DNA from: an uncultured Actinomycetota bacterium
Lineage (GTDB): Bacteria; Actinomycetota; Actinomycetes; Actinomycetales; Demequinaceae
Assembly: GCA_963712245.1 (NCBI GenBank)
Contig: CAVQHE010000004.1
Location: 34,602 to 98,601, forward strand
Direction: 5' to 3'
DNA length: 64,000 nt
Within the stretch, counting starts at the first letter, position 1; each line of letters starts with the position of its first letter. The notes beneath the pieces were generated by a model. That model saw only the letters and a list, made by a program, of their open reading frames with translations, ran no database searches and was not told the origin of the DNA. Positions 17,089 to 60,772 of the stretch are shown here, piece by piece. Position numbers and translations under genes: made by a program.

Positions 17089-17744
17089 CAACGACACCGC
17101 CAACAGCGTCCTCGTCATCGGGCTCGGCCGCTTCGGCTCCGCGCTCGCCGACACGCTTGGACAACCTCGACATCGAGGTGCTCGCCGTCGAGCGCGACCC
17201 CGACCTCGTCGAGCGATGGTCCTCGCGCCTGCCCGTCGTCGAGGCCGACGCGTCCGACCCGCGCGCGCTCGAGCAGATCGGCGCGAAGGACTTCCACTCC
17301 GCCGTCGTCGGCGTCGGCACCTCGCTCGAGGCGTCCGTGCTCATCACGGGCAACCTCGTCGACATCGCCATCCCGGAGATCTGGGCGAAGTCCATCAGCG
17401 CCGAGCACGCCCGCATCCTCACCCGCATCGGTGCGCACCACGTCGTGCTGCCGGAGACGGACTCGGGGCGTCGCGTCGCGCACATCGTCGGCGGCAAGAT
17501 GCTCGACTACATCGAGGTGGAGGACGGCTTCACCATCGTGAAGATGCGCCCCCCGCAGGAGACCCACGACTTCACGCTCGAGCAGCTCGACCTGCCGGAC
17601 AAGTACGGCGTCCAGGTCATCGGCGTGAAGTCGCCCGGCGTCGAGTTCGAGTACGCGACCCCGGAGACGCGCATCCACAAGGACGACCTGCTCGTGGTCG
17701 CCGGCGACAGCGAACTGCTCGACCGCCTCGCCCAGCGTCCCTAG
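17081..17744 (+). CDS. trkA: Trk/Ktr potassium uptake NAD-binding (RCK) subunit, one frame break near 17158
   Basis: The TTG start overlaps the trkH stop. VLVIGLGRFGSAL (Rossmann GxGxxG) is in one frame. The remainder, from DIEVLAVERDP to DDLLVVAGDSELLDRL, is in ORF 16317..17744. Confidence 0.8.
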
Positions 17745-18508
17745 GAGGCCCGGGAGGCGGCCTTGCCGAACCGCGCCGACCACCACCGCGTGGGGACGTA
17801 GCGGGCCATCGTCATCAGCGCCGCCATGGGCCACGGGAAGACGATCGCGAGGCGCCCGCGCTCGATTCCCCGGACGATCGACGCCGCGGCGCGGTCGACG
17901 TCGATCATGAACGGCATCGGGAAATCGTTGACGGCCGTGAGCTCGGTCCGGACGAATCCGGGGGCCACCGTCGTCACGCGGACCCCGCGCGTCCAGAGCG
18001 AGGCCCGGAGGGATTCGAGGAGCGCGATCAGCGCGGCCTTGGTCGAGCCGTAGGCCTCGGCGCCGGGGAAGCCCCGGAAGCCCGCGACCGACGCGACGCC
18101 GACGACGTGCCCGCGGCCGCTCTCGACCATCGCCGGCAGGGTCGCGGCCAGCAGGTTGTTGAGCCCGAGGACGTTCACGTCGTAGTGGCGCGCGAAGGAG
18201 TGCGCGTCCCAGTGGAGGGCGTCGCTCTTCTCCCAATACGCGGCGCACCACACCACGGTGTCGATGCCCCCGAGCTCCTGCTCGACGGTCGTCGCCGCGC
18301 GACGCATCGCCGCGGCGTCGGTCACGTCGACCGGCACGACCGCCATCTGATCGCCCGCGACCTCCTCCAGGAGCTTCGTCCGACGTCCGGTGATCGCGAC
18401 CCGGGCCCCGCGCTCGGCGAGTAGCCGCGCGGTCGCCGCGCCGATGCCGCTCGAGGCGCCGACGAACCAGACCCTCTGCCCCCGGAGGTCGCGCGTCCAG
18501 TGCTTCAC
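17741..18508 (-). CDS. Short-chain dehydrogenase/reductase
   Basis: VGASSGIGAA and YGSTKAA (YxxxK) are present. The GTG at 18508 overlaps the upstream stop (GTGA). Confidence 0.85.
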   Translation of the reverse strand: MKHWTRDLRGQRVWFVGASSGIGAATARLLAERGARVAITGRRTKLLEEVAGDQMAVVPVDVTDAAAMRRAATTVEQELGGIDTVVWCAAYWEKSDALHWDAHSFARHYDVNVLGLNNLLAATLPAMVESGRGHVVGVASVAGFRGFPGAEAYGSTKAALIALLESLRASLWTRGVRVTTVAPGFVRTELTAVNDFPMPFMIDVDRAAASIVRGIERGRLAIVFPWPMAALMTMARYVPTRWWSARFGKAASRAS

Positions 18509-19746
18509 GCCGCCCCCTCGCGCTCGAACCGGAACTGCGCGACGTCGAGGTAATCCGTGGCGAATCCCGCCTCGCTGTAGGAGAGGTAGAACTCCCAGAT
18601 CCGGCGGAACCGCGGCTCGAACCCCAGCGCCTCGACCGCGTCCCAGTGCTGGAGGAAGGTCGAGCGCCAGCGGCGCAGGGTCTCCGCGTAGTGGTGGCCG
18701 AAGTGTTGCCGGTCCGTGATGCGCAGCGACGTCCGGGCCGTGCACTTCTCGATCGCCTTGACCGAGGGGATGATCCCTCCCGGGAAGATGTGCTTCTGGA
18801 TCCAGCTGAGCGACCGGCGCGTCACCCGGTAGCGCGCGTGCGACATGAGGATCGCCTGCACGACGGCGACGCCGCCGGGCGCGAGGAGGCGGTCGATCGC
18901 GTCGAAGTAGGTCTGCCAGTACTCGTCGCCGACGGCCTCGATCATCTCGACGCTGACCACGGCGTCGTACTCGCCGTCGACCTCGCGGTAGTCCTGGATC
19001 CGGATGTCGATGCGGTCCGCGACCCCCGCGGCCTCGGCGCGCTTCGACGCGAGCTCCGCCTGTTCGACGGACAGCGTCACCGTGGTCACGGTCGCGCCGC
19101 GGAGCGCGGCTCGGATCGCGAGCGTTCCCCACCCGGTGCCGATCTCGAGGAGACGGGTTCCCTCCCCGACCTCGGCACGGTCGAGGGCCGCGTCGACCTT
19201 GCGCTCCTGGGCCTCCTGGAGCGTCTGCTCCTCCCACGGCCTCGCGTCGTCGAACAGCGCGGAACTGTAGGTGAGCGACGGGTCGAGGAACTGGGCGAAC
19301 AGGTCGTTGCTGAGGTCGTAGTGCGCCTCGATGTTCTTCTTCGCGCCCGTCAGGGAGTTCCGCATCGATCGCGGCACGCGCCGCTCGGCGAATGCGCTGA
19401 TCCGCTGCACCCACATCGGAACGGCGTGGTCGATGACGCGGGCGAACGGGTACATCGCGACCGACAGGTCGGTGCCCTCCCCGGGCCGCCAATCACCCTC
19501 GATGTACGCGTCGCCGAACCCGATCTTGGGCTCGTGGCCCACGCGCCGGAAGAACGCGTCGGCGTCCACGAGGTCGATACGCGGCGCGTCGGCGCCGCCA
19601 CCTCCCATGACCGTGCCGTCGTCGAGCACGACGCGCGCGTCGACCTTCGGCAGGACGATTCGCGCGACCTTCTTCGCGACGAAACCGTGGAGGCACGGGC
19701 GGCGGGAGTCGCCGCGCATGCAGCGGGGGTGATTGGTGGCGCTCAT
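18505..19746 (-). CDS. Cyclopropane-fatty-acyl-phospholipid synthase family SAM-dependent methyltransferase
   Basis: NIEAHYDLSNDLFAQFLDPSLTYSSALF and the SAM motif LLEIGTGWGTLA are present. The ATG at 19746 overlaps the DUF1365 stop (ATGA). Confidence 0.85.
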   Translation of the reverse strand: MSATNHPRCMRGDSRRPCLHGFVAKKVARIVLPKVDARVVLDDGTVMGGGGADAPRIDLVDADAFFRRVGHEPKIGFGDAYIEGDWRPGEGTDLSVAMYPFARVIDHAVPMWVQRISAFAERRVPRSMRNSLTGAKKNIEAHYDLSNDLFAQFLDPSLTYSSALFDDARPWEEQTLQEAQERKVDAALDRAEVGEGTRLLEIGTGWGTLAIRAALRGATVTTVTLSVEQAELASKRAEAAGVADRIDIRIQDYREVDGEYDAVVSVEMIEAVGDEYWQTYFDAIDRLLAPGGVAVVQAILMSHARYRVTRRSLSWIQKHIFPGGIIPSVKAIEKCTARTSLRITDRQHFGHHYAETLRRWRSTFLQHWDAVEALGFEPRFRRIWEFYLSYSEAGFATDYLDVAQFRFEREGAA

Positions 19747-20501
19747 CGGACGGCCTCCTTCGGGTGCGGGGAGCGAGGGTAGAGGGGAAGACGGCGCGCC
19801 CACAGCACGAGGGCGTGGACGCGGATCAGGAGCGTGGTGAGGTGGGGCATGAATCCGTGAGTCGCGATCACGCCGGCGACGGCGCGGGGCGTGGCGGGGC
19901 GGGCGGCTCCCCCGACGGTCGCGTCGATGATGCGCTGACCGTCGCGCTCGAGCCGGACGCCCACGATGAGGTCGCGGGACGTCACGCGCAGCCGCATCTC
20001 ATAAGTGCCTCGCATGTCGTTGAAAGGCGACACGTAGAAACTCTTCTCCACGCTAGCGCGGGCGGCCTCCTCGGGGGAGAGCAGGTAGGCGTGGCGCTCG
20101 CGGTACGTGTTGTGGACCTCGACGATCGCGGCGCGCAGCGTGCCGTCCGCGCGGACGATCCAGAACGCGGAGAGCGAGTCGAAGGCGTACCCCAGCATGC
20201 GGGCGTGGGCGAGCATCAGCACGCGGTCCGTGTCCTCCATCTCGACGCCGCGGCCCCGGAGGAAGCGTCCGACGTCGCCGCGGATCCCGCCCCCGAGGCG
20301 AGCGCCGTCGAGGTGGTCGCGGGGGTCGAAGCGCGCGATCCATCGGAGGCCCCGCGGCAGCTGGGGCAAGCGGTCGACGTCCACGAGCCAGTGGTAGTGG
20401 CGGTACGAGAACGAGTGGTGCTTCGGGCGATGACGCGTGTGGGCGACGCGCCCCACGATCAACGCGGGGACGGCCGGGGCCTCGAAGGCGACGCCTACCA
20501 T
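19743..20501 (-). CDS. DUF1365 domain protein
   Basis: GRVAHTRHRPKHHSFSYRHYHWLVDVDRLPQL is a typical DUF1365 N-terminus. It overlaps the upstream gene by 7 nt. Confidence 0.85.
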   Translation of the reverse strand: MVGVAFEAPAVPALIVGRVAHTRHRPKHHSFSYRHYHWLVDVDRLPQLPRGLRWIARFDPRDHLDGARLGGGIRGDVGRFLRGRGVEMEDTDRVLMLAHARMLGYAFDSLSAFWIVRADGTLRAAIVEVHNTYRERHAYLLSPEEAARASVEKSFYVSPFNDMRGTYEMRLRVTSRDLIVGVRLERDGQRIIDATVGGAARPATPRAVAGVIATHGFMPHLTTLLIRVHALVLWARRLPLYPRSPHPKEAVR

Positions 20502-21805
20502 CGCGCCCCCACCGGATCGCCGACGCCCGAGCGGCGCCCACGCTGCCACTCGGCCTCGAGCCGCGCCGCCGCCTCGACGCCGGAGCGGCACCCGTCCTCG
20601 TGGAATCCCCATCCCAGGTGCGCGCCCGCGAACGCGAGGGACGGGCCGCCTGCCTCCCGGAGGCGCGACGCCGCGTCGACGGCCTCGTGCGTGAAGATCG
20701 GGTGGCGGTACGTCATCTTCGCGATGACCGCGTCCTCGTCTACCCGGTCGCCCGGATTGAGGGTGACCGACAGATCGTCCGGCACGTCGACGCGGTGGAG
20801 GTTGTTCATCCAGTAGCTGACGAGCACGCGGTCGGCGCCCTCGTCGCACTCGCGCATCCGGTAGTTCCACGATCCGCGCGCGGCGGGGATCTCCGGCAGG
20901 ACCGACTCGTCCCGGTGGAGGTAGGTGATGTTCTCGGAGTAGCCGACGGATCCGAGGTCGGCGCGCTCCGCGTCGGTAGCGTCGGTGAGCATTGCGAGCG
21001 CGTCGTCCGCGTGGGTGGCGATGACCGCCTGGTCGAACTCATCGACCGTGCCGTCGGCAATCGTCACCTCGACGCCGCGGGGCGTTCGGCGCACCGCCGT
21101 CACCGCGCTGTCGGTGCGGACGTCGTCGAGCGCGGCAAGCAGCTTCTCGACGTACACGCGCGAGCCGCCGACGACGGTGCGCCATTGGGGGGCGCCGAAC
21201 AGCCTGAGCAGGCCGTGGTGGTCGAGGAAGGCGAAGAGGTGGCGCGCGGGATAGTTGCGGGTGTCCTCGTCGCCCGAGGACCAGACGCACGAGACGAGCG
21301 GGACGGCGAAGTGGCGGATGAAGTACTCGGAGAACCGCCCCTCGTCCAGGAACTCGCCCCACGTCTGGCGGTTGTCCTCGCGGGCGAGCGCGCGTCGCGC
21401 GCGGCGGTGGAAGCGCGGTACCTCGGTCAGCATGCGGAGGAAGGGCAGGCTGAAGAGACGACGCGGCTGCGCGAATATCCCCCGGATTCCGCGCGAGCCG
21501 ACGTAGGAGAGGCCGCACCCCTCGCACGTCACGCTCATGCTCATCTCGGTGTCCTGGGTCGGGACGTCGAGCTCGCGGAAGATGCGGAGGAGGTGGGGGT
21601 ACGTACGCTCGTTGTGGACGATGAACCCCGAGTCGATCGCGACGTCCGTCCCGTCGGTCAGGGGCACGTCGTGGGTGTGCGCGTGGCCCCCGAACCGGCG
21701 GTCAGCTTCGAAGAGGGTGACGCGGTGGGTCGCGCGCAGCGTGTAGGCGGCCGCGAGTCCGGATATCCCGGACCCGATGACGGCGACGGTCGGCGTGGTG
21801 GACAT
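20495..21805 (-). CDS. FAD-dependent oxidoreductase (amine-oxidase / desaturase-like)
   Basis: VAVIGSGISGLAAAY is the dinucleotide-binding motif. The 436-aa protein is the first gene of a four-gene overlapping operon. Confidence 0.85.
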   Translation of the reverse strand: MSTTPTVAVIGSGISGLAAAYTLRATHRVTLFEADRRFGGHAHTHDVPLTDGTDVAIDSGFIVHNERTYPHLLRIFRELDVPTQDTEMSMSVTCEGCGLSYVGSRGIRGIFAQPRRLFSLPFLRMLTEVPRFHRRARRALAREDNRQTWGEFLDEGRFSEYFIRHFAVPLVSCVWSSGDEDTRNYPARHLFAFLDHHGLLRLFGAPQWRTVVGGSRVYVEKLLAALDDVRTDSAVTAVRRTPRGVEVTIADGTVDEFDQAVIATHADDALAMLTDATDAERADLGSVGYSENITYLHRDESVLPEIPAARGSWNYRMRECDEGADRVLVSYWMNNLHRVDVPDDLSVTLNPGDRVDEDAVIAKMTYRHPIFTHEAVDAASRLREAGGPSLAFAGAHLGWGFHEDGCRSGVEAAARLEAEWQRGRRSGVGDPVGARW

Positions 21806-21833
21806 GAGCACTCCCTGGTGGGTCGAACAAACG

Positions 21834-21885
21834 TTAGACACGTACCTTAGACATTCCCTGGACAGAATGTCAAGGGTTTGTCTAA
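21834..21885. promoter_or_regulatory. Repeat-rich operator/promoter region between the divergent operons
   Basis: TTAGACA occurs at 21834-21840 and 21847-21853 (13-bp period), with its inverse TGTCTAA at 21879-21885. The imperfect palindrome CCCTGGACA-GAA-TGTCAAGGG lies at 21856-21876. Plausible -35/-10 pairs exist on both strands: TTGTCT-17-TATCGT on plus and TTGACA-18-TAAGGT on minus. Confidence 0.4.
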
Positions 21886-21920
21886 GATGAGGGTGTTCAC
21901 TATCGTTCGACAGGGAGCCC

Positions 21921-22358
21921 ATGATGAAACTCGAGATACGCGTGCCGACGACCGCGGACCCGTCGGCGGTCTTCGCCTACCTCTCCGATTTCACGACGAC
22001 GACGGAGTGGGACCCCGGCACCGTCGAGACCACCCGCGAGTCCGGGCACGGCGGCGTCGGGACCGTCTACCGCAATCGCTCGACGTTCGCCGGGCGCACG
22101 AGCGAGCTCACCTACACGGTGATCGAGCGCGACGAGCCGCGCCGGATCCGGCTTCGCGGCTCGAACGAGACCGTCACCGCGATCGACACCATCACCGTCG
22201 AGGCCTCCGAATCTCCCACCGTCGTCCGGTACGAGGCGGACTTCACGTTCCGCGGGGTCGCGAAGCTCGCCCGCCCGTTCCTCGGTCGCGCCTTCGCGAA
22301 GCTGCGCGACGACGCGGAGCGCGGCCTACGCGAGGCGCTCGCGCGGCTCGAGGGATAG
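21921..22358 (+). CDS. SRPBCC (START/polyketide-cyclase-like) ligand-binding protein
   Basis: This 145-aa ORF has VFAYLSDFTTTTEWDPG, typical of SRPBCC proteins. The RBS AGGGAG lies upstream. Confidence 0.7.
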   Translation: MMKLEIRVPTTADPSAVFAYLSDFTTTTEWDPGTVETTRESGHGGVGTVYRNRSTFAGRTSELTYTVIERDEPRRIRLRGSNETVTAIDTITVEASESPTVVRYEADFTFRGVAKLARPFLGRAFAKLRDDAERGLREALARLEG

Positions 22359-22371
22359 GGTCCCGCCCGGC

Positions 22372-23370
22372 ATGTACACGATCAAGCGCGCGGCCGAGCT
22401 GACGGCGATTCCCGTCGCGACCCTGCGCGCCTGGGAGAAGCGGTACGGCGTCGTCAGCCCGACGCGCTCCGACAACGGCTACCGCGTGTACAGCGAGGCG
22501 GATCTCGACGTCCTCCGCGCCATGAACGCGCTCGTGGCCGATGGGTGGACGCCCGCCCAGGCGGCGACCAGGATCGCGCGCGACGGCGGCGCGGGATCGC
22601 TCGCTCCCGCAGCCGCGGGGTCGGTCGCCGCTGTACCCATCCCCGCCGAGCCCGCGGCGTCTGGTCCCCTGCCGCCCGCCCCCGACGTTTCCCGGCCGCC
22701 CGTCGAGCGCCTTCCCGCCGAGCCCGCTCATCGGGCCCCGGCCGTCATCCCGGCGGATATCGAGGAGTTCCTCGACGCGGCGGAGCACATGGACGCGGAG
22801 CGACTGGTCGCGATCCTGAGCGACCGGTTCATGCGCGCCCCGTTCGAGACGATCGTCGACGAGTGGCTGCTGCCCACGCTGCGAGCGCTGCTCGAGGCGT
22901 CGAGCCGGGGCCGCATCTCCGCGATGGCGGAGAACCTCGCGACCCATACCGTGATGAGGCGGGTCGCGATGGCGTTCGAGACCACCCCGCCCCATGAGAA
23001 CGGGCCGCGGATCGTCGTGGGGCTCGCACCGGGATCGCGGCACGAGCTCGGCTCGCTGTCGATCGCGACGACGGCGCGTCGCGCCGGCCTGTCCGTGACC
23101 TACCTCGGCCGCGACCTGACCTACGAGAGCTGGATCGAGGCGGTCGACGCGCGTCAGCCCGCCGCCGTCATCCTGATGGTGGTCGAGTCGAAGGACGCGC
23201 CGGCCGTCGCGGAGGTGCTCGAGGAACTGCGGGAGGGGCATCCCGGGCTCCGGACGATCGTCGCCGGCCGATTCACGCACCTCGTCCCGGACCCCGTCGA
23301 GCGCTTCGGCCCCAAGTTGGGCCACGACACGAAGGCCCTCGCCGAGCAGCTCCTCGCCGCTCACCGTTGA
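22372..23370 (+). CDS. MerR-family regulator with a C-terminal B12-binding-like domain (CarH/LitR-like architecture)
   Basis: The N-terminal MerR HTH is YTIKRAAELTAIPVATLRAWEKRYGVVSPTRSDNGYRVY. The C-terminus has RIVVGLAPGSRHELGSLSIATTARRAGLSVTYLG, an xHxxG cobalamin lower-ligand-type motif followed by a Rossmann strand. Confidence 0.7.
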   Translation: MYTIKRAAELTAIPVATLRAWEKRYGVVSPTRSDNGYRVYSEADLDVLRAMNALVADGWTPAQAATRIARDGGAGSLAPAAAGSVAAVPIPAEPAASGPLPPAPDVSRPPVERLPAEPAHRAPAVIPADIEEFLDAAEHMDAERLVAILSDRFMRAPFETIVDEWLLPTLRALLEASSRGRISAMAENLATHTVMRRVAMAFETTPPHENGPRIVVGLAPGSRHELGSLSIATTARRAGLSVTYLGRDLTYESWIEAVDARQPAAVILMVVESKDAPAVAEVLEELREGHPGLRTIVAGRFTHLVPDPVERFGPKLGHDTKALAEQLLAAHR

Positions 23371-23465
23371 TCCGGCGATCCGGGCCAGCGGCCCGGGTCA
23401 CGGGGAAGCCACGAACGAGTAACGGTTGCCCCCAACGGTCGCGCCCTCCCAGGCGTCTCCCTACT

Positions 23466-24458
23466 ATGACAATCATGACGACGCACACGCATACGGCCCC
23501 ACGACGCGCCCTCCGCGGCGCCTTCATCGCCTCACTCGTGGCCGTCGCCGCGGTGCTGGCGGGCTGCTCCTCTTCGGCAGACGCCGCATACCAGAACACC
23601 ATGGACGACGCGGGCTACGCGGGCGAGCCGGCCGCGCCGAACGCGGGCGGCGCCGACACCGACCGCTCGTTGACCGAAGACAAGTCATCGACCGGCCAGA
23701 ACGCCTTATCCGCCGATCGCGCCGTGATCATCACGGGCTCCATGTACATGACGGTCGAGGACCCGATCGTCGCGGCCGACCGCGCGGCGGCCATCGTCCG
23801 CGGCGCCGGCGGGCGCATCGACGCCCGCCGCGAGACCGCGCCCGACGAGCACTACGGGGGCTCCGCCGCCCTCACGCTGCGCATCCCTTCCGACCGACTC
23901 GACGGGGTGGTCGAGGACCTGCGCGACCTCGGCACGGTGGACCAATTCACCACCGACTCGTACGACGTCACGACCCAGGTGACGGACCTCGAGGCTCAGA
24001 TCTCCACGCTGAAGGCCTCGACGGGGCGCATCGAGGCGCTGCTCGCGCAGGCCAAGGACATCTCCGACATCATCACGCTCGAGAACGAGCTGGATCGCCG
24101 CCAGGCGCAGCTCGAGAGCCTCGAGGCGCGCCAGCGCGGCCTCGACGACCAGGTGTCGATGTCCACGATCGACCTCTCGCTCACCACCGAGCCGGTCGTC
24201 GTCATCGTTGAGGAGGACGAGCCCCAGACGTTCTTGGGCGCCCTGACGTCCGGATGGGACGCGCTCGTCGGCTTCCTCTCGGGCGTCCTCATCGTGCTCG
24301 CGGTCCTGCTGCCGTGGCTCGCGCTGATCGCGGTCATCGGGGTGCCGATCCTCCTCGTGGTCCGCGCCCGGAAGGCCCGCGAGGCCCGCGAGGCCGCCGC
24401 CGCGTTGGCCGCGTCCGCGAAGCCGACGACGAGGCGGACGGCGGCGAAGAAGGCCTAA
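23466..24458 (+). CDS. DUF4349 domain lipoprotein with a C-terminal TM anchor
   Basis: It has the lipobox LAGCSS, the segment ITGSMYMTVEDPIVAADRAAAIVRGAGGRID, a coiled-coil stretch and the C-terminal hydrophobic segment VLIVLAVLLPWLALIAVIGVPILLVV. Confidence 0.75.
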   Translation: MTIMTTHTHTAPRRALRGAFIASLVAVAAVLAGCSSSADAAYQNTMDDAGYAGEPAAPNAGGADTDRSLTEDKSSTGQNALSADRAVIITGSMYMTVEDPIVAADRAAAIVRGAGGRIDARRETAPDEHYGGSAALTLRIPSDRLDGVVEDLRDLGTVDQFTTDSYDVTTQVTDLEAQISTLKASTGRIEALLAQAKDISDIITLENELDRRQAQLESLEARQRGLDDQVSMSTIDLSLTTEPVVVIVEEDEPQTFLGALTSGWDALVGFLSGVLIVLAVLLPWLALIAVIGVPILLVVRARKAREAREAAAALAASAKPTTRRTAAKKA

Positions 24459-24561: not shown

Positions 24562-26985
24562 TTAGACCGTCGCGGTCACCTCCACGGTCGCGCCCGCTGG
24601 CGCGTACGGAACCGTGTTGCCCTCGATCGACTCCCCATCGACCGTGAGCCTCGCGCCCTTCCCACCGGAGTTCTTGACGGAGATGACGTACGTCGCGCCG
24701 CGGATCTGGCGCCGCACGGTGAATTCGGAGACCTCCGCGCCGATGCAGGGATCGACGACGAGGCCGTCCCAATCCGGGCGGACGCCGAGCAGATACTGCG
24801 AGACGGCGACGAAGTTCCACGACGCGGTCCCCGTCAGCCACGAGTTCTTCGCCTCGCCATGGCGGACGGCGTCCTTGCCCGCGATCATCTGCGCGTACGC
24901 GTACGGTTCGAGACGGTGGACCTCGGAGATCTCCTCGCGATACGCGGGGTTGATCTGCTTGTAGTACTCCCACGCGCGATCGGGGCGACCCACGATCGTC
25001 TCGGCGATGATCACCCACGGGTTGTTGTGGCAGAAGATGCCGCCGTTCTCCTTGTAGCCCGGGGGGTAGGTGGAAACCTCCCCGTACGCGACGTTGTACG
25101 CCGTGAACGCCGGATTGAGGAGCACCATGCCGTGGGGCGTGTTCAGCCGCTCTCGCGCGGAATCGAGAGCCGTGACCGCCTTGCCGTCCTCGACGCCGAT
25201 GCCGCCCATGACGCAGAAGCCCTGGGGCTCGATCCAGATCTTGCCCTCGTCGTTCTCGCGCGAGCCGACCTTGTTGCCGAAGTAGTCGTACGCGCGCAGG
25301 AACCACTCCCCGTCCCAGCCGTGCTCCGCGACGGTCGCCCGCATATCGGCCACCGCCTTCTCGGCCCGGGTCGCCTCCGCCTCGTCCCCGCGCCGTCGGG
25401 CGAGCGCCGCGTACTCGGGTCCGATCGCGCAGAACATCCCGGCGATGAAGACCGACTCGGCGACGCCGCCGACCTTGTTCTCCGTGGTCTGGAACGACTC
25501 GCCGGGCGTCGTCGAGAAACAGTTGAGGTTGAGGCAGTCGTTCCAGTCGGCGCGTCCGATCAGCGGTAGCCCGTGCGGACCGACGTTGTCGAGCGGGTAG
25601 TCGAAGGACCGACGGAGGTGCTCCATGAGCGGCCGCGCGCGCGACTCGTCGTTGTCGAACGGCACCCTCTCGTCGAGGATCGCGAAGTCGCCAGTCTCCT
25701 TGATGTACGCGGCCACTCCGAGGATCAACCACAGCGGGTCGTCGTTGAAACCGGACCCCAGCGCGTGGTTCCCGCGCTTGGTCAGAGGCTGGTACTGGTG
25801 GTACGCACTCCCGTCCTCGAACTGCGTGGACGCGATGTCGATGATGCGCTCGCGAGCGCGCTCGGGCATCAGGTGGACGAAACCCAGGAGGTCCTGGTTC
25901 GAGTCGCGGAAGCCCATCCCGCGCCCGATGCCCGTCTCAAAGTACGACGCCGAACGCGACATGTTGTACGTCACCATGCACTGGTACTGGTTCCAGGTGT
26001 TGACGATGCGGTCGAGTTTCTCGTCGCCAGACTCGACCGTGTACGACCCGAGCAGACCGTCCCAATACGCGTTGAGCTTCGCGAATTCGGCGTCCGTCGC
26101 CTCGGTGGTCGCGAAGCTCTGGAGGAGCGCCTTCGCGCCCGCCTTGTTGACGACGCCCGGCGACTCCCACTTCTCGTCCTGCGCGTTCTCCAGGTACCCG
26201 AGTACGAACGTGACGCTTGTCGTCTCGCCGGGCCCGAGCTCGACCTTGAGGTGGTGCGAGGCGCACGGGTACCACCCGGACGCGATCGAGCCCGTCGACT
26301 CGCCGGCGAGTGGCACCGCCGCCTCGTGGAATCCGTTGCCGTACCCGAGGAACGTGTCGCGATCGGTGTCGAAGCCCGCGATGGGAGCGTTCACACCGTA
26401 GACGGCGTAGTGATTCCGGCGCTCGCGGTACTCGGTCGTGTGATAGATCGCGCCTCCGTCGACCTCGACCTCGCCGAGCGACAGGTTGCGCTGGTAGTTC
26501 GTCTGGTCGTCCTCGGCGTTCCACAGGTTGAACTCGACGAAGCTGAAGAGCGAGAACGACTTCGCGGCGGTCGTCGTGTTGGTGAGCGTCACCTGGTGAA
26601 TCTCGGCGTTGACGTCGACGGGAACGAACATCAGCACCGACGCGCGCAAGCCCCCGCGCTCGCCCGTGATGCGCGTGTACCCCATCCCGTGGCGCGTCTC
26701 GAAAAAGTCCAACTCCTTCTTGTACGGACGGTACGACGGGCTCCACACGTCGCCGCCGTCGTTGATCGAGAAGACGCGGCCCCCGTCGTCGACCGGCGTG
26801 TTGTTGTACCGGTAGCGCGTCAGGCGCCGCAGTTTGGCGTCCCGGTAGAAGCAGTAGCCGCCCCCCGTGTGCGACACCAGTCCGAAGAAGTCCCGGGATC
26901 CGAGGTAGTTGATCCAAGGAAACGGCGTGTGAGGCGTGGAAATCACGTACTCACGGGCCGCGTCGTCGAAGTGACCGAACTTCAT
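24562..26985 (-). CDS. GH94 glycoside phosphorylase (cellobiose / chitobiose phosphorylase family)
   Basis: The 807-aa protein has [29 protein letters not shown] and [10 protein letters not shown] and shows full-length GH94 similarity. The frame is intact. Confidence 0.9.
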
Positions 26986-27042
26986 TGTTGAGGCGCCTTC
27001 CGGGGTCGGGCCGACTTGCCGGGTACAGCCTACCCTCATTCG

Positions 27043-37421: not shown

Positions 37422-38684
37422 CTAGCGCGTCGCGCGACGCGTCGTCTCGCGCACGAGGGCCGACAGCAGCCGGTCGCCCGCCGTCGACCATTCGGCCTCG
37501 GCGACGGTCGCCGCGTTGCCCCGCGCGAGGGCCCCGTCCCTGTTGCGGTCGTACGCCTGAACGAGCGCCCGGGCGAGGGCCCCGGGCGACGCCTCCGACC
37601 ACGCGATGCTCGGTACGTCCGCGACGAGCCGGTTGTTCGGACCGTCGTTCACGACGGGGGTGACTCCCGCGGAGAGAAGCTCGAGGGGGAGCAGCGACAG
37701 GTTCGACAGGGAGATGACGAGACCCGCGGCGCACTCGTTGTACAACGCGTTGAGCTCCCCGAGCGGAAGCGAGCCGTGGTTGATGTGCGGAAACGGCGCC
37801 CGCGACGCGTCGAATCCCTCGCCCGCGAAGTGAATCGTGGCGTCGGGCCGCTCCTCGGCGAAGCGCCGGAGGGCCATGACCCCGAGATCGAACCCTCGAC
37901 GCGGCGTCGTGGGACGCGCGTAGAAGAACACGCCGCCGCGCGGCCGATCGTCGAGCACCCGGTACCGCGCCACGTCCGCGCCGAAGTCGTAGTGGTCGCA
38001 GGACATGCCGTATCGATCGGCGAGCATCGTCGACAGCCAGCCCCCGGCCGTCAAGCCGTGAAATCCGAACCGATACGTGTTCTCCGCGAGCACGTACTCC
38101 GTGCTCATCGGGTAGAACATCGGCTCGAAGTCCTGGACGAAGTAGAAGCGGCGCGCTCGCGAGCGGTCGAGGAACGACGGATACGCCGTCTCCCACCCGG
38201 TGGCGACGAGCGCCTGGACGTCGTCCGCCACGCCGCGCCCCGGGTCGTAGTCCTCGATCGACGCGTCGAGTGAGGAGAACGCGTCCGACGACTCGAGCAT
38301 CCGCCGCACGTCGGCGGGCCGTATTCCGAGGCCCTGTCGGTCGTATAGGTATATCCGGCACCGGTGGCCCGCCTCCTCCGCGAACCTGATGAACCGGAAC
38401 ATGTTCTGATGACCGCCGCTGTGCGGCCCCGGCGGCGACGTCAGCCACCCGATGCACAACGGTCCCTCGTCGGCGAACGCCGGCTCGCGGATCGCGTCCG
38501 GCGGCGACGTCCAGTCGGCGCGAAACGCGTCGTCGCCCGCCACGAGCATCGGCCTCGAGTAGCGCCGGGAAATCCGGCCCGCGACGCGCCCGACGAAGGG
38601 GCCGACGCCCTCCCGCACGAGGACGCGTCCCGGTCGTGCCACGCGCCACGCGACGCGGCGCAACGACGTCCGTAGCTTGGTCAC
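37422..38684 (-). CDS. Glycosyltransferase, possibly a WsaF-like rhamnosyltransferase
   Basis: RRFYFVQDFEPMFYP and the two-Rossmann GT-B layout resemble WsaF-type enzymes (from memory). The GTG at 38684 is preceded by AAGGGAG. Confidence 0.6.
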   Translation of the reverse strand: MTKLRTSLRRVAWRVARPGRVLVREGVGPFVGRVAGRISRRYSRPMLVAGDDAFRADWTSPPDAIREPAFADEGPLCIGWLTSPPGPHSGGHQNMFRFIRFAEEAGHRCRIYLYDRQGLGIRPADVRRMLESSDAFSSLDASIEDYDPGRGVADDVQALVATGWETAYPSFLDRSRARRFYFVQDFEPMFYPMSTEYVLAENTYRFGFHGLTAGGWLSTMLADRYGMSCDHYDFGADVARYRVLDDRPRGGVFFYARPTTPRRGFDLGVMALRRFAEERPDATIHFAGEGFDASRAPFPHINHGSLPLGELNALYNECAAGLVISLSNLSLLPLELLSAGVTPVVNDGPNNRLVADVPSIAWSEASPGALARALVQAYDRNRDGALARGNAATVAEAEWSTAGDRLLSALVRETTRRATR

Positions 38685-38809
38685 CGCGACTCCCTTTCCG
38701 CGCGTCGACGGCGTACCCGATCGACGCCCCCAAAGTAGCGCCATCCTACGGCGTGGTCGCCACGGCGCGTCGGCGCGGCCGCCCGCGCCCGCGATACACT
38801 GGCCGCGAA

Positions 38810-38914
38810 CGACAGGGGAGCGCCTCCGTCCACCGAGGACGGGCCAGGGCGCTGAGAGTGCGGATCGCCGCAGACCCTCGAACCTGATCCGGCTAGCACC
38901 GGCGTAGGGAGTCG
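38810..38914 (+). promoter_or_regulatory. TPP (THI-box) riboswitch with an SD-sequestering expression platform
   Basis: The aptamer reads CGAC-AGGGGAGCGCC...GGGCGCUGAGAG...ACCCUCGAACCUGAUCCGGCUAGCACCGGCGUAGGGA-GUCG. Downstream, CCUCCU (38925-38930) can pair with the SD AGGAGG (38935-38940), 8 nt before the ATG at 38948. Confidence 0.9.
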
Positions 38915-38947
38915 AGACTCGTCCCCTCCTGAGAAGGAGGCTGAACC

Positions 38948-39992
38948 ATGCGCACACGCGCGCACCGTCACCACCGCCACGGCGCTCGCCGTCGCGGCAA
39001 CCTGTCCCTCGGCGGGATGCTCCTCCGCCCGATCCGACCCGACGTCCGTCACCGTCGTCACTCACGACAGCTTCGCGGTACCGGACGACGTCGTGGCGGC
39101 CTTCGAGCAGGAGTCCGGCCTCCACGTCACGTTCGTCGCGCCGGGCGACGCCGGGACGCTCGTCAACCAGCTCATCCTGACCAAGGACGCGCCGCTCGGC
39201 GACGTCGTCTACGGGATCGACAACACGTTCGCCTCCCGCGCGATCGACGAGGGCATCTTCGCCGACTACACGAGCGAGCTACCCGCCGCGGCCGACGCCG
39301 CCGCGTACGCGGTCCCCGGAGCTCGCGCGCTCACCGCGATCGACTACTCGGACGTGTGCCTCAACGTCGACCACCGCTACTTCGCGGATCGCGGCATCCC
39401 CGAGCCCGACACGCTCGACGACCTGCACGAAGCCCGAATACAAGGGCATGCTCAGCGTCACCAACCCCGCGACGTCGTCTCCCGGCCTCGCCTTCCTGCT
39501 CGCGACCATCGCGGCGAAGGGCGACGCGTGGCCGGACTACTGGGCGCAGCTCCGCGCCAACGGCCTGCGCGTCGCCGCCTCGTGGTCGGACACCTACTAC
39601 ACGGACTTCTCGGGCCCCAACTACGGCGGCGACTACCCGATCGTGCTCAGCTACGCGTCGTCTCCGCCGTCCGAGGTCGGCGACGACGGGGCGCCCACCA
39701 CGGCGGCCTTGCTCGACACGTGCTTCCGCCAGGTCGAGTACGCGGGCGTCCTCGAGGGCGCGGAGAACCCGAGGCCGCCAGAAGGTGGTCGACTGGATGC
39801 TGTCCGACGCGTTCCAGGCGTCGCTCCCGGAGAACATGTACGTGTATCCCGTCTCGACCTCGCGTGTCGAGTGCCGGCCGAGTGGGCGGAGTACGCGCCG
39901 CTCGCCCGCACCCCTGCTCGCTCGACCCCGGCACGATCGACGCGCACCGCGACGAGTGGATCCGGACGTGGACGGAGGAGGTGCTCGGCTAG
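38948..39992 (+). pseudogene. thiB: Thiamine ABC transporter substrate-binding lipoprotein (ThiB/TbpA), at least 5 frame changes
   Basis: Frame 2 holds only the ATG. The signal peptide with lipobox SAGC and VVTHDSFAVPDDVVAAFEQESGLHVTF are in frame 0. GMLSVTNPATSSPGLAFLLATI is in frame 1. VVDWMLSDAFQASLPENMYVYPV is in frame 2. The tail DEWIRTWTEEVLG is in frame 0. Confidence 0.8.
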
Positions 39993-48830: not shown

Positions 48831-49600
48831 CTACCGCTGCAACGTGTTCAAGAGTTCGACGGCGTACGCGTGCGTCTCGGGGAGCGCCTCGACCCACACC
48901 CGGGGCGGCTGACGCCACAGGTTGCCGACGCGCATGCTGGTCGCGCGCTCGTCGATGTGCTCGCGGAGCGCCGCGATGCCGGAGCCGAGGGCCTCGCCGC
49001 GGCGAACCAGCACCCCGTAGAGGCCGTCGCCGAGGTGCGCCATCGGGTGGCCGTCGCCGTACGCCGCGACCAACGCCGAGCCGACCGCCGCGTTGCGCGC
49101 GATGCGCTGCCACACGTCCGAGTCCACGACCGAGACGTCGACGACGACGAGCGCGTGCGTGTCGGCGACGCGCTCGTCCCGGCGCCTAGCCGCGCCGTAG
49201 ACCTCGACGAGACGCTGCGAGAGGTAGTCGACCGTGCCGAGCCCCGACTCGGGTCGGTCATCGTGCCCAGCGAGCCTCCAGCCGGGTTCCCGCCGGTCCA
49301 TCCCTCGCACAGCGCGCGGACGGAACGGATGGGGGTGTCCTCGTATCCTGCGGCGCGGAACACGATCGCGAGGTCGTCGATCGCCTCGGTGATTCCGACG
49401 CCCGCGTTGGCGCGAGCCGCGCCAAGCCTTGACGCGGAGGGAGCGGTGTCGAGTCCGGCTTCGATCGCCTCGACAAGGGCGTCCACCGCAGGCGTGTACC
49501 AGTCGCCCGGGCGGAGCCACACAGTCTGCACACTGGCCGCGCGCCACTCCTCGGTGAGGGCACTCGCGGATCCAGATCGACTCACATCGACGTCCGTCAT
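48831..49600 (-). CDS. Hypothetical protein with a degenerate GGDEF-like C-terminal domain; one frame break near 49290
   Basis: The N-terminal half is in ORF 48848..49600 and the C-terminal half in ORF 48831..49604. THALVVVDVSVVDSDVW...AHLGDGLYGVLV resembles a GGDEF fold in which GGDEF is replaced by GDGLY. This is my visual alignment only. Confidence 0.45.
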
Positions 49601-49776
49601 GCATGATGAGAGAGATTCGTCACTCCGTTATGACGCCGTTATCTCGAGAATTCTCCGAAACCTTCGCGAATCCGGCGCCGAAGGTGTGACAAACGTCGCA
49701 CTTCACCAGGTTGCGTACCGTCGCGCGCGACCAGGGACCATTAGATATGGGCGTCAGAAGCCCGATCGGAGCATCG

Positions 49777-57247: not shown

Positions 57248-57337
57248 GGTGACGTGTCCGAGCGGCCTAAGGAGCACGCCTCGAAAGCGTGTGTGGGGGC
57301 AACTCCACCGTGGGTTCAAATCCCACCGTCACCGCCA
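57248..57337 (+). tRNA. tRNA-Ser (anticodon CGA), CCA encoded
   Basis: The acceptor stem GGTGACG/CGTCACC, anticodon loop CT-CGA-AA, long variable arm and T-arm GTGGGTTCAAATCCCAC are all present. Confidence 0.9.
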
Positions 57338-58548: not shown

Positions 58549-58636
58549 TGGCGGAGGATGGGGGATTCGAACCCCCGAGGGCTTGCACCCAACACGCTTT
58601 CCAAGCGTGCGCCATAGGCCACTAGGCGAATCCTCC
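58549..58636 (-). tRNA. tRNA-Ser (anticodon GGA), CCA encoded
   Basis: The reverse complement reads GGAGGATTCGCCTAGTGG...ACGC-TT-GGA-AA-GCGT...GGGGGTTCGAATCCCCCATCCTCCGCCA, with a long variable arm. Confidence 0.9.
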
Positions 58637-58720: not shown

Positions 58721-58816
58721 GAAGGACCCCTCACGCGGCGTCACCTCGCGGAACTCCCCCAGGGCAGAAATGCAGCAAGGGTACGCGGGCTCTGGCGGGT
58801 GCGTGGGGGGTCCTTC
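58721..58816 (+). ncRNA. ffs: Small (4.5S-type) signal recognition particle RNA
   Basis: It forms a long hairpin in which GAAGGACCCC pairs with GGGGUCCUUC. The apical domain IV motif is CCCAGG-GCA-GAAA-UGC-AGCAAGGG (GNRA tetraloop flanked by AGG/AGCA loops). It sits in the usual position upstream of dnaX. Confidence 0.8.
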
Positions 58817-58850
58817 GCGTCTCGGGGCGACCTGCCCTAGAGTCAATCGT

Positions 58851-60772
58851 GTGAACCAAGCCCTCTACCGCCGCTACCGGCCGGACACGTTCGCCGAGGT
58901 CGTGGGCCAGGAGCACGTCACCGAGCCGCTCATGCACGCGCTCCGGACCGACCGCGTCGCCCACGCATACCTCTTCTCCGGACCCGCGGGGTTGCGGCAA
59001 GACGACGTCCGCGCGCATCCTCGCCCGGTGCCTCAACTGCGCCCAGGGGCCCACCGATACGCCGTGCGGGACGTGCGACTCGTGCGTCGAGCTCGCGACC
59101 GGGGGGACGGGATCGGTCGACGTCGTCGAGATCGACGCAGCCTCGCACAACGGCGTCGACGACGCCCGGGAGCTCCGCGAGCGCGCGGCCTTCGCGCCCG
59201 CGCGGGACGCGTACAAGGTCTTCATCCTCGACGAGGCGCACATGGTGACCCCTCAGGGGTTCAACGCCCTCCTGAAGCTCGTCGAGGAGCCCCCGCCGCA
59301 CGTGCGCTTCATCTTCGCGACGACGGAGCCCGACAAGGTGATCGGCACGATCCGCTCGCGTACCCACCACTACCCGTTCCGCCTCGTGCCTCCGGCGGTG
59401 CTCACCGACTACCTCGCCACGCTGTGCGAGGCCGAGGGGACGACGGTCGCCGCGGGAGTCCTGCCGCTCGTCGTGCGCGCCGGGCGGCGGCTCCGTGCGC
59501 GACTCCCTGTCCGTCCTCGACCAGCTCATGGCCGGCTCAGGGGACGACGGCATCACCTACGAGCGCGCGATCGCGCTTCTGGGGTTCACGGACGCGGCGC
59601 TACTCGACGACGCGGTGGACGCGCTCGCGGCGGGAGACGGCGCGTCCCTCTTCGCCGTGGTCGAGCGCGTGATCCAGACGGGGCACGAGCCGCGCCGATT
59701 CGTCGAGGATCTGCTCGAGCGCCTGCGCGACCTCCTCATCCTCGCGGCGGCCGGCGAGGCCGGGCTCAAGGCCCTCGGCGCGGTACCGCTCGACCAGCTG
59801 GACCGGATGCGCGACCAGGCCCGCCGCCTCGGCCTCGAGCGCGCGTCGCGCGCCGCCGACCGCGTCAACGACGCCCTGACGTCGATGGTCGGGGCGACGT
59901 CGCCGCGGCTGCACCTCGAGTTGCTGTGCGCGCGTCTTGTCGCGGGCGAGAGCCCCGTTCGCCTCGAACCGGCGTCGACGGGCGCAGCCGACGCGGCCGA
60001 GGCGGACTCCCCCGCCCGGCCCGCGAGCCCGCTTGCGGCCCTCGTCGTCGCCAACCGCGAGCCCGCCTCGCCGTCATCGGCGACGCCCACCGGCGACGAG
60101 GACGCTCCTCCTCCGGCCGCCGAGAAGCCGTCGCCTCCCGACGACGCGACCACCGATGACGCGGCGACCGACGAGGACGACGCCGCCTTGGAACCCGCGC
60201 CCGCGTCTGAGTCGACGCCGGAGCCGGAGCCGGCCACGGAAACCCCGCCGCCGAGCGCGGAGGCGGCCGTCGACCTCCCGGCCCCCGACGCCGCCTCCGG
60301 CGACGCCGAACTCCTGCGACGTCGGTGGTCGGAGGTGCTCGGGACCCTCGAGCGTCGCCGCGTGACGTGGGTGCTGGTCAGCCAGAGCGCGCAGGTCGCG
60401 CGCGTCGACGGCGACACCGTCGTCCTCGCATTCTCGAGCCCGCCGCTCGCGGAGCGCTTCAACGCCGGTCAGCACGCCGAGAACGTCGCGCTCGCCATCC
60501 GCGAGACGCTCGGGCTCCAGGTGCGCGTCGCCGGTGAGCCCGAGAACGGGTCGGCCGCGCCGCCGCCCACGCCCCGGTCCGCGCCAGCCCCGACCCGGAC
60601 CGATCCGTCTCCCGCGCCCGCGCCGGAGCCCGAGCCGAAAGCGCCGCCGCGCCGTTCCGCGGCGACCGAGGACGAGGCGTCCGACGGCGACGCTCCCGCT
60701 CCCGACGCCGACCTCACCGGGGCCGACGCCGTGGCGAAGATGCTCGGCGGGACCGTCGTCGACGACGAGTAG
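58851..60772 (+). CDS. dnaX: DNA polymerase III subunit gamma/tau; two frame breaks (about 58990 and about 59483)
   Basis: [23 protein letters not shown] is in frame 0. Walker A GCGKTT appears only after removing one T in [35 protein letters not shown] and TRSRTHHY are in frame 1. [14 protein letters not shown] onward is in frame 2, after an extra G in CCGGGCGG. Confidence 0.9.

Follow-up and report, generated by a model that had tools for sequence, protein, structure and literature searches.

A putative furan-lipid operon facing a CarH/LitR-family regulator with a remodelled cobalamin-binding domain in an uncultured actinobacterium

The repressor CarH, or class I LitR, represented in Thermus thermophilus (Tt), Bacillus megaterium, Myxococcus xanthus and Streptomyces, combines a MerR winged-helix domain carrying an RxWERRY-type helix with a four-helix bundle and a Rossmann cobalamin-binding domain, and its operators consist of 11-bp direct repeats in tandem and overlap elements of the promoter (consensus nnnnTnnACAn; PMC9304148). 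AdoCbl binding, oligomerisation and DNA binding all depend critically on the Wx9EH motif; its loss separates the B12-independent paralogue CarA of Myxococcus from CarH and explains the B12 independence of CarA (PMC9304148, PMC8156234). CarA is still built like CarH, with the His motif for B12 binding, and has been reported solely in Cystobacterineae, always alongside CarH. The class II LitR proteins of Pseudomonas (PplR/PmlR) have the helix bundle only and depend on short LOV photoreceptors; they control light-induced clusters with phrB and genes for a short-chain dehydrogenase/reductase (SDR), an FAD oxidoreductase and UfaM (PMC9758184). The C-terminus of class III LitR (Burkholderia) is unrelated to that of the regulators considered here. 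LitR-family control of the enzyme set described below is already known from the Pseudomonas class II proteins, and the statement in a preliminary description of our locus that such a pairing of regulator and operon is undescribed was too strong.

The rv0445c-rv0449c cluster of Mycobacterium tuberculosis (SigK/RskA) presumably includes genes for a DUF1365 protein and an amine-oxidase-like enzyme besides the CFA-like ufaA1. It resembles the present locus as an actinobacterial cluster under stress-responsive control, but it is controlled by the ECF sigma factor SigK (PMC4854729) and has no MerR/B12 regulator. The operons RSP1091-1087 of Rhodobacter sphaeroides and RPA2571-2568 of R. palustris, under sigmaE/ChrR, encode UfaD, UfaO, a CFA-like methylase and an SDR. 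UfaO is the characterised DUF1365 protein; the products of the R. palustris genes ufaD-ufaO-ufaM are sufficient for furan fatty acid synthesis, and in R. sphaeroides the in-operon CFA-like protein RSP1089 and the SDR RSP1087 are dispensable for it (PMC7380195).

The stretch analysed here (the window, 64 kb) contains six genes that form two divergent groups:

17741 to 18508, minus strand: short-chain dehydrogenase/reductase in an RSP1087-like position, 255 aa; Pfam adh_short, 2e-42
18505 to 19746, minus strand: CFA-synthase-family SAM methyltransferase (UfaM/RSP1089-like), 413 aa; Pfam CMAS, 8e-86
19743 to 20501, minus strand: UfaO-like DUF1365 protein, 252 aa; Pfam DUF1365, 2e-63, profile positions 1-233 of 235
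20495 to 21805, minus strand: UfaD-like FAD-dependent amine-oxidase-family oxidoreductase, operon gene 1, 436 aa; Pfam Amino_oxidase, 3e-27, and NAD_binding_8
21921 to 22358, plus strand: SRPBCC (Polyketide_cyc2) protein, 145 aa; Pfam, 4e-18
22372 to 23370, plus strand: predicted MerR repressor of the CarH/LitR family whose cobalamin-binding domain is remodelled, 332 aa; Pfam MerR_1, 1e-15, and B12-binding, 35.0 bits (cut-off 32.1)

The four minus-strand genes are translationally coupled: a GGGAG ribosome-binding site precedes the ATG of the FAD enzyme gene, which overlaps the DUF1365 gene by 7 nt (ATGGTAG), and the following junctions are overlaps of ATGA (DUF1365/CMAS) and GTGA (CMAS/SDR). 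The Pfam matches and junction overlaps bear out the four-gene operon facing an SRPBCC gene and a MerR/B12 regulator of the preliminary description, and the profile searches found the domains that it had named, with the exception of B12-binding_2, which scores 19.9 bits in the regulator, under its cut-off of 23. The SRPBCC and regulator genes, 13 nt apart from stop to start, are probably co-transcribed.

By sequence and predicted fold the regulator is a relative of CarH/LitR, as had been proposed. Its best NCBIfam match is the CarH model (5e-31) and its best PDB match TtCarH/LitR (2e-20). The layout comprises a DNA-binding domain (residues 1-71), a disordered linker (72-125), a four-helix bundle (128-204) and a Rossmann domain (213-331). 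TtCarH is the top Foldseek match of the AF2 model (pLDDT 87), and the predicted C-terminal cobalamin-binding domain superposes on that of TtCarH with a TM-score of ~0.8 and an rmsd of 2.6-3 A. In the alignment with TtCarH the DNA-recognition motif reads RAWEKRY, both residues of the dimer salt bridge (Tt R176/D201) as well as G192 are conserved, and the lower axial His is kept (His224 in SRHELG, within the peptide GSRHELG noted earlier). In contrast to CarH/class I LitR, the regulator gene follows a conserved SRPBCC gene and faces, as its presumed target, a lipid-modification operon instead of carotenoid genes.

The arrangement is widespread. Among 80 loci from GTDB species representatives (81 regulators including that of the window), about 70 have the FAD enzyme gene, joined by the DUF1365 and CMAS genes as far as the contig reaches, in divergent orientation to the regulator gene. 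The genera include Terrabacter, Janibacter, Humibacillus, Nocardioides, Actinotalea and others, and the flanking genes vary from locus to locus around the conserved module. The SRPBCC gene lies directly upstream of the regulator in ~68 of the 80. A gene for DNA photolyase is part of at least 42 of the related operons, a strong argument for control by light in this family, and in Terrabacter the regulator is flanked by genes of cobalamin biosynthesis; the 64-kb window itself contains no cobalamin genes. The functional pairing in this clade is the same as that of the Pseudomonas class II LitR proteins, but the clade belongs to Actinomycetota, has the SRPBCC partner and carries a full B12-type domain.

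The two gene groups of the window are separated by a spacer whose elements are as follows:

21806 to 21920, no strand: divergent control region, 115 bp, 51% GC; both promoters and all operator repeats lie inside
21830 to 21864, minus strand: operator repeats L1-L3 (TGTCCAGGGAA TGTCTAAGGTA cg TGTCTAACGTT), over the spacer, -10 and expected transcription start of the operon promoter
21844 to 21873, minus strand: putative operon promoter, -35 TTGACA (21873-21868), 18-nt spacer, -10 TAAGGT (21849-21844)
21859 to 21888, plus strand: sigma-70-like SRPBCC-regulator promoter, -35 TGGACA, 18-nt spacer, -10 TAAGAT
21868 to 21889, plus strand: operator repeats R1-R2 (TGTCAAGGGTT TGTCTAAGATG), between the -35 and over the -10 of the SRPBCC-regulator promoter

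The spacer had been described as unusually AT-rich and indeed holds the global GC minimum of the 64 kb; the window averages 70.6% GC, and only 0.08% of 115-bp windows are equally low. The SRPBCC-regulator promoter is the sole promoter-like match of a scan across 17600-23600. The operon promoter was read by eye, including its -10 box, which falls outside the stricter rule of the scan tool and agrees with the actinobacterial TANNNT pattern. The five repeats are TGTC-type 11-bp direct repeats in two arrays placed head-to-head over both promoters. The double-repeat pattern TGTCNARGNNNTGTCNAAG has two matches in 64 kb, both in the spacer, with 0.00 expected by chance, and the reverse complement of R1-R2 agrees with the CarH consensus. 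A homologous repeat pair beside the SRPBCC start is kept in more than 60 related loci from many genera. The adjacency of regulator and operon is strongly conserved together with a CarH-type operator.

The enzyme families and gene order match the published ufaD-ufaO-ufaM set, as the preliminary description had suggested, and protective membrane lipids of the furan type are the probable product of the cluster. The RSP1091-1087 and RPA2571-2568 operons are also similar in gene order and protein sizes, except that the window has no RSP1088 homologue and has a CarH-family repressor instead of an ECF sigma/anti-sigma pair. It is possible, although unlikely, that the product is not a furan but another modified lipid (a mid-chain methyl-branched, methylene or cyclopropane acyl chain, further processed) or derives from a non-acyl hydrophobic substrate. 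None of the enzymes attains an NCBIfam equivalog cut-off, the best CMAS match being 261 bits against 600, and the nearest solved structure of the FAD enzyme is the amine oxidase LkcE (2e-35), which acts as a polyketide amide oxidase. The methyltransferase matches E. coli CFA synthase (6BQC, 8e-47) over its whole length including the N-terminal domain; as RSP1089 is dispensable in R. sphaeroides, it need not be the equivalent of UfaM. Branched and Delta9-unsaturated chains, rather than cis-vaccenate, abound in the membranes of actinobacteria, which also favours a different product. However, the DUF1365 match is full-length and UfaO is the sole characterised member of that family, the three-gene order is identical to that of the sufficient R. 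palustris set, and the co-occurrence of photolyase under a light-sensor family suits a lipid that scavenges singlet oxygen.

The regulator departs from its relatives in the adenosyl pocket. W..EH and GG are present in 78 of the 81 regulators, while SS..EN and AG occur only in the regulator of the window and in its two closest relatives (L008 and L009). The degenerate Wx9EH motif had been noticed before (EN for EH, in the peptide SSRGRISAMAENLAT, which is present), but the damage is greater, as the Trp is lost too. The equivalents of Tt W131, H132 and H142 are all replaced, with W changed to S and H to N; Leu and Met stand in place of Tt G128 and A139, and bulkier residues fill the pocket. Changes specific to the subclade of the window concentrate in the Ado-capping helices. 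Within this subclade the helix bundle is 86-90% identical and the Rossmann domain 77-84%, compared to ~50% for the linker; to judge from these values, the remodelled domain is still under purifying selection. By the field's own motif criterion the regulator would be classed as CarA-like and not as a canonical AdoCbl photoreceptor. It does not share its origin with CarA: the proteins most closely related to it are canonical CarH-like ones from actinobacteria (45-49% identity), and its motif loss is therefore independent of that of CarA, where EH is kept and Trp is missing, whereas W and H are both replaced here. The SRPBCC partner accompanies canonical regulators also and is therefore no specific compensation for the loss.

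The proposed light or B12 control thus divides. Direct sensing is likely for the wider clade; for the window it is doubtful because both AdoCbl-CarH signature motifs fail in an outlier among 81 regulators, which probably responds to a different input signal now. As the lower axial His and the general fold are kept, some corrinoid binding could persist. We consider it improbable that the regulator still senses light through cobalamin, binding a corrinoid via His224, perhaps with a smaller upper ligand (methyl- or hydroxocobalamin), and leaving the operator on illumination. The CarH-like bundle modelled with high confidence, the selection on the domain and the canonical appearance of all other clade members, with their photolyase-containing operons, would fit such a sensor, but the pocket substitutions, the published importance of Wx9EH and the lack of cobalamin genes in the window argue against it.

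That regulator and operon are neighbours by chance or shared ancestry, the regulator controlling its own transcription only, is very improbable: 36 of 65 related loci have a conserved ECF-like promoter element upstream of the operon, apart from the strongest repeats, so that a sigma factor could mainly drive the operon there, but the module is kept across differing genomic contexts, the repeats of the window lie symmetrically over the two promoters in a space of 115 bp, and a search of its control region found no ECF-like element.

These results lead us to favour, with a probability of about 60%, a self-contained stress module in which furan-lipid enzymes are governed by a CarH/LitR-family repressor with an altered, CarA-like input that represses both promoters. 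The CFA-synthase-like methylase, the UfaD-like FAD desaturase and the UfaO-like DUF1365 oxygenase would convert monounsaturated acyl chains of phospholipids into methylated furan fatty acids; an SDR accompanies these three homologues. The operon would be transcribed from a sigma-70-type promoter, back-to-back with that of the SRPBCC and regulator genes. The regulator would bind the tandem CarH-type repeats (nCCTTnGACAn), and from the head-to-head position of the arrays on the spacer and -10 regions we infer that the bound oligomer silences both the operon and its own gene. The ancestral input was probably light via AdoCbl photolysis, since repressors of the wider clade keep all AdoCbl-photoreceptor motifs and their operons usually contain a photolyase gene. 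In the lineage of the window the adenosyl pocket has been rebuilt while purifying selection kept the domain, and the repressor most likely works without AdoCbl photolysis, with CarA-like, constitutive oligomerisation; its release would then come from another signal or partner tied to photo-oxidative stress.

All six genes that the preliminary description had read from the sequence are borne out by their Pfam domains, their junctions and the low GC content of the spacer that separates the two divergent units. They are as follows.

20495-21805, minus strand: FAD enzyme, 436 aa (Pfam Amino_oxidase/NAD_binding_8)
19743-20501, minus strand: DUF1365 protein, 252 aa (Pfam DUF1365, PF07103, 2e-63, full length)
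18505-19746, minus strand: CFA-synthase-like methylase, 413 aa (Pfam CMAS, 8e-86)
17741-18508, minus strand: SDR, 255 aa (Pfam adh_short, 2e-42)
21921-22358, plus strand: SRPBCC protein (Pfam Polyketide_cyc2, 4e-18)
22372-23370, plus strand: regulator (MerR_1, 1e-15; B12-binding, PF02310, 35.0 bits against a cut-off of 32.1; B12-binding_2, PF02607, 19.9 bits, under the cut-off of 23)

The minus-strand junctions of the operon read ATGGTAG (a 7-nt overlap), ATGA and GTGA, and 13 nt separate the SRPBCC stop from the regulator start. The GC content of the spacer (21806-21920) is 51% compared with 70.6% for the window, and the lowest-GC point of the 64 kb falls inside it. The SRPBCC protein has a single NCBIfam match, to the Rv0910-family toxin model (43 bits against a cut-off of 100); we attribute it to generic fold similarity and reject a toxin-antitoxin reading of the SRPBCC/MerR pair.

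The spacer contains 11-bp repeats of a TGTC type, together with a sigma-70-like promoter on the plus strand and a putative promoter on the minus strand.

21868-78, plus strand: TGTC-type repeat TGTCAAGGGTT
21879-89, plus strand: TGTC-type repeat TGTCTAAGATG
21864-54, minus strand: TGTC-type repeat TGTCCAGGGAA
21853-43, minus strand: TGTC-type repeat TGTCTAAGGTA
21840-30, minus strand: TGTC-type repeat TGTCTAACGTT
21859-64 (-35, TGGACA) and 21883-88 (-10, TAAGAT), 18-nt spacer, plus strand: sigma-70-like promoter on the SRPBCC side, the sole sigma-70-like match of the promoter scan
21873-68 (-35, TTGACA) and 21849-44 (-10, TAAGGT), 18-nt spacer, minus strand: putative operon promoter from manual reading, symmetrical to the plus-strand promoter

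Two copies of the double-unit pattern TGTCNARGNNNTGTCNAAG lie head-to-head in the spacer and none elsewhere in the 64 kb, against 0.00 occurrences expected by chance. On the opposite strand the repeat unit reads nCCTTnGACAn and fits the published CarH repeat nnnnTnnACAn, which forms tandem arrays of three or four over -35 or -10 boxes (PMC9304148). The -10 box TAAGAT falls within the second plus-strand repeat. A repressor bound at the repeats would occlude both divergent promoters, and we consider it highly probable that the regulator directly represses both of them through these repeats. An Rfam search at the gathering threshold gave zero matches in the locus and four related loci, and we rejected an RNA element such as a riboswitch for the spacer and for the relatives. 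The second-lowest-GC stretch of the window (52%, 49557-49717) is another divergent intergenic region, and it lacks CarH-type repeats.

The proposal in the preliminary description depended on the adjacency of regulator and operon being conserved, and the module is indeed kept across genera in differing flanks. Among homologues at 37–80% identity, every neighbourhood has the SRPBCC gene and the regulator divergent from FAD enzyme-DUF1365-CMAS, with varying flanks. A genome scan restricted to one genome per GTDB species, with arrangements determined by tblastn with the proteins of the window, yielded 80 loci from Terrabacter, Humibacillus, Intrasporangium, Janibacter, Terracoccus, Nostocoides, Nocardioides, Actinotalea, Kineosporiaceae and several MAGs. 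In 33 of these loci the region upstream of the regulator contains the SRPBCC gene with FAD enzyme-DUF1365-CMAS-photolyase-Rce1-like-NAD/TspO fusion, and 11 share the arrangement of the window, with the SDR gene last. Three loci have the photolyase and lack the lipid enzymes (one of them also has the Rce1-like and NAD/TspO genes), and further loci show mixed forms or a module cut by contig ends. None of the module genes and no carotenoid (crt) genes were found near the regulator in 7 of the 80 loci; as these seven related regulators without the module also have no crt genes close by, a carotenoid link was rejected. More than 60 loci keep the repeat pair TGTCnAAGGTn-TGTCAAAGGTT just before the SRPBCC gene begins, and a locus from Actinotalea (L011) has a canonical regulator while sharing its promoter-operator layout with the window. 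The recurrence of the module in differing contexts with conserved repeats indicates that the adjacency represents a conserved functional module, and its position between ffh and rpsP in Actinotalea (L003) indicates that it moves as a unit.

In most relatives (L006, 544-4046, and over 40 others) the operon extends beyond the methylase and adds genes for a DNA photolyase, for an Rce1-like (CPBP) homologue of membrane proteases and for an NAD-binding/TspO fusion. The presence of a photolyase in the same operon makes light control of the regulator family very likely. Many Terrabacter-type loci have cbiJ directly downstream of the regulator, and further cobalamin-biosynthesis genes adjoin in the Terrabacter locus for which a full gene listing was obtained. 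Homologues of cobD, cbiA and cobA flank the regulator in L006, and none is present in the window; the 64-kb window also contains no homologue of the photolyase, the Rce1-like protein, TspO or CbiJ.

A conserved promoter-like element, C(A/C)ATCC-N15-18-CGAAC, with a variable spacer, was observed on the operon strand 5' of the enzyme operon in a number of relatives (for example L020, 7370-7470, L022 and L038). Its place is between the start of the FAD enzyme and the repeats on the regulator side. It was present in 36 of 65 spacers; the figure for photolyase-type loci is 29 of 42, and the window lacks it. We take it to resemble promoters of the ECF (SigK/SigE) type. If it is a real promoter, those relatives would have dual control or a repressor-to-sigma cascade.

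The rest of the genes in the window are housekeeping genes. On one side the module is flanked by trkH/trkA and by genes for cytochrome c biogenesis (Cytochrom_C_asm, DsbD_TM). On the other lies an 825-aa ORF (24562-27039, minus strand), which is in synteny with Glyco_hydro_94 fragments of the related locus L002, along with genes for alkaline phosphatase, dCTP deaminase, dnaK-grpE and ribonucleotide reductase. Downstream of the regulator lies a DUF4349 gene (23367-24458, plus strand, Pfam 7e-65), the longest ORF of which overlaps the regulator stop codon. It is also found downstream in L002/L009, its place in L001/L008 is taken by a 230-aa gene with no Pfam match, and tblastn gave no match to it in more distant loci; it probably lies outside the module. 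In the close relative L002/L009 (MAG CAVUPQ01, contig_49540) the operon and the regulator look frameshifted, with CMAS and SDR fused, the FAD enzyme shortened and the regulator 402 aa long with an aberrant tail; either the long-read assembly is in error or the module has truly decayed there. Elsewhere in the window, a TPP riboswitch (Rfam RF00059, 62.6 bits; 38804-38927, plus strand) falls within the 5' portion of the longest minus-strand ORF for a WsaF-like glycosyltransferase (37422-39125), whose domain matches start at residue 321, so that the true start is probably further downstream. Two tRNA genes and a small SRP RNA are located at 57248-57334 (plus), 58552-58636 (minus) and 58722-58818 (plus), the small SRP RNA just 5' of a dnaX-like gene (59495-60772).

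The solved structures closest to the regulator are those of Thermus thermophilus CarH/LitR (2e-20). The top NCBIfam model is the CarH equivalog, with a score of 108 bits that is far under the 400-bit cut-off. An AlphaFold (AF2) model built from 24 homologues (pLDDT 87 overall and above 90 across residues 128–331) consists of a MerR domain (1–71), a disordered linker (72–125), a four-helix bundle (128–204) and a Rossmann domain (213–331). T. thermophilus CarH (TtCarH) ranks first in a Foldseek search, and the cobalamin-binding domain alone superposes on it with a TM of ~0.8 and an rmsd of 2.6–3 Å; the suggestion that the C-terminus is a cobalamin-binding domain thus stands, because the domain models as such. 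The DNA-recognition motif is retained (LRAWEKRYG, aligned with LRQWERRYG in TtCarH), as are the lower axial His aligned to TtCarH (His224 and Gly in SRHELG), the R176/D201 pair and G192 (Tt numbering). The first position of (D/E)xHxxG is Ser, and canonical members of the clade are also non-acidic there. Assignment to class V of the LitR proteins was rejected, as class V (Micrococcales) lacks a B12 domain (PMC9758184) and the regulator carries one.

Both signature motifs of AdoCbl-dependent CarH are altered in the regulator. Wx9EH is not intact, with S177 at the Trp position and E187-N188 at EH; relative to TtCarH the replacements are W131 to Ser, H132 to Ser and H142 to Asn. The GG that ends the classic B12-binding motif reads AG in the window and in its two closest relatives (L008 and L009), and GG in all other relatives. 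Both Wx9EH and GG are intact in 78 of 81 genome-translated regulators, the only exceptions being the window and the MAG loci L008 and L009. When the best 120 database homologues were aligned, all but one of the proteins outside the subclade of the window retained W..x9..EH, and all of them retained the RHE(L/I)G-type His motif and GG, whereas the four subclade members, mutually 78–100% identical, read SS..EN and AG. Counting positions where the family residue is conserved at 85% or more, the subclade-specific changes cluster in the adenosyl-pocket helices (G128L, W131S, A139M and H142N, Tt numbering), with more in the Rossmann domain (P203T, G247A and Q249T). Identity within the subclade is 86–90% in the bundle, 77–84% in the Rossmann domain, 80% in the DNA-binding domain and ~50% in the linker. 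The bundle and Rossmann domain are therefore as conserved as the DNA-binding domain, which argues that the remodelled domain is maintained by selection. Judged from these sequence comparisons, the motifs were lost in this lineage specifically, and the domain has not decayed. According to published work, Wx9EH is critical if the protein is to bind AdoCbl, oligomerise and bind DNA, CarH homologues are defined by both signature motifs, and loss of Wx9EH made CarA of Myxococcus B12-independent (PMC9304148; PMC8156234). On balance we lean towards a loss of canonical AdoCbl photosensing in the lineage of the window.

The enzymes point to acyl chains as the target. In Rhodobacter sphaeroides, UfaD corresponds to RSP1091 and the DUF1365 protein UfaO to RSP1090 (Lemke et al. 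2020). Furan fatty acid synthesis there does not require RSP1089 (402 aa, CFA-like), RSP1088 or RSP1087 (245 aa); the gene order in R. palustris is ufaD-ufaO-ufaM (RPA2571-2569) (PMC7380195). The gene order and protein sizes in the window (436, 252, 413 and 255 aa) match the ufa loci, with the RSP1088 homologue missing. The UfaO candidate is a DUF1365 protein (PF07103, 2e-63), the family of the FAD enzyme (Amino_oxidase/NAD_binding_8) and its position directly 5' of the DUF1365 gene would suit UfaD, an FAD-dependent desaturase, and the UfaM candidate is a CMAS-family protein in the R. palustris ufaM position, UfaM being the SAM-dependent methylase that forms 11-methyl-12-trans-18:1. Among solved structures, the LkcE amine oxidase is nearest to the FAD enzyme (2e-35) and E. 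coli CFA synthase to the methylase (8e-47); sequence searches found no solved relative of the DUF1365 and SRPBCC proteins. The operon probably modifies acyl chains by the UfaM/UfaD/UfaO route, and a furan-type product is our best-supported guess.

Five LitR/CarH classes have been summarised (PMC9758184). In Pseudomonas, light-induced genes under the control of class II LitRs include phrB and ufaM, and the conserved pmlR1 region contains phrB, SDR, FAD oxidoreductase and ufaM. The blue-light response of V. cholerae, which involves a MerR-like regulator and ChrR, includes a CFA synthase (PMC5241685). LitR-family control of this enzyme set is therefore already known, and the pairing is not as novel as first supposed. 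The literature searched contained no description of an actinobacterial CarH beside DUF1365 or CFA-like genes, of a B12-type LitR member controlling the enzyme set in Actinomycetota, of an SRPBCC partner of a CarH/LitR regulator, or of a CarA-like derivative outside myxobacteria.

The locus is an actinobacterial CarH-derived counterpart of light-induced furan-lipid clusters, with a sensor that has been remodelled in this lineage. The original interpretation is partly supported: it holds for the CarH/LitR family and the conserved module, and direct B12 or light sensing is doubtful for the regulator of the window. Compared with CarH and class I LitR, repressors that oligomerise with AdoCbl and leave the DNA on illumination, the regulator has the MerR domain, the cobalamin-domain fold, the axial His and the operator but lacks Wx9EH and GG. 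Like CarA, it shares the CarH architecture and the B12 His motif without an intact Wx9EH (as defined in PMC9304148). However, CarA forms a monophyletic Cystobacterineae clade coexisting with CarH and CarS, whereas the nearest relatives of the regulator are actinobacterial proteins with canonical motifs. We propose, tentatively (with a probability of about 0.4), that the CarH-to-CarA transition took place a second time, independently, in actinobacteria, where one lineage would have rebuilt the adenosyl pocket into a B12-independent or differently liganded repressor that kept the CarH operator and is released by another signal. Possible candidates for this signal are the conserved SRPBCC partner and a ligand, either a lipid or an oxidised lipid.

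CarH/LitR photoreceptors are known mainly for switching carotenoid genes and for their use in optogenetics. The clade described here would be a B12-type member devoted to another photoprotective output, a photolyase and a furan-fatty-acid-type lipid pathway, in common soil actinobacteria, and its regular SRPBCC partner is a further feature that sets the module apart from described systems. For producing furan fatty acids in a heterologous host, the locus offers a compact candidate operon. The regulator of the window is a natural variant that has lost the adenosyl cap and is still constrained, and comparison with its sister proteins (45–49% identity, predicted to use the same operator) may reveal the residues that give CarH its B12 and light dependence and how the sensor was rewired. 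If the CarH-to-CarA transition was indeed repeated, B12-independent CarH derivatives would be no myxobacterial peculiarity, and the lineage would offer a second natural system for studying sensor rewiring.
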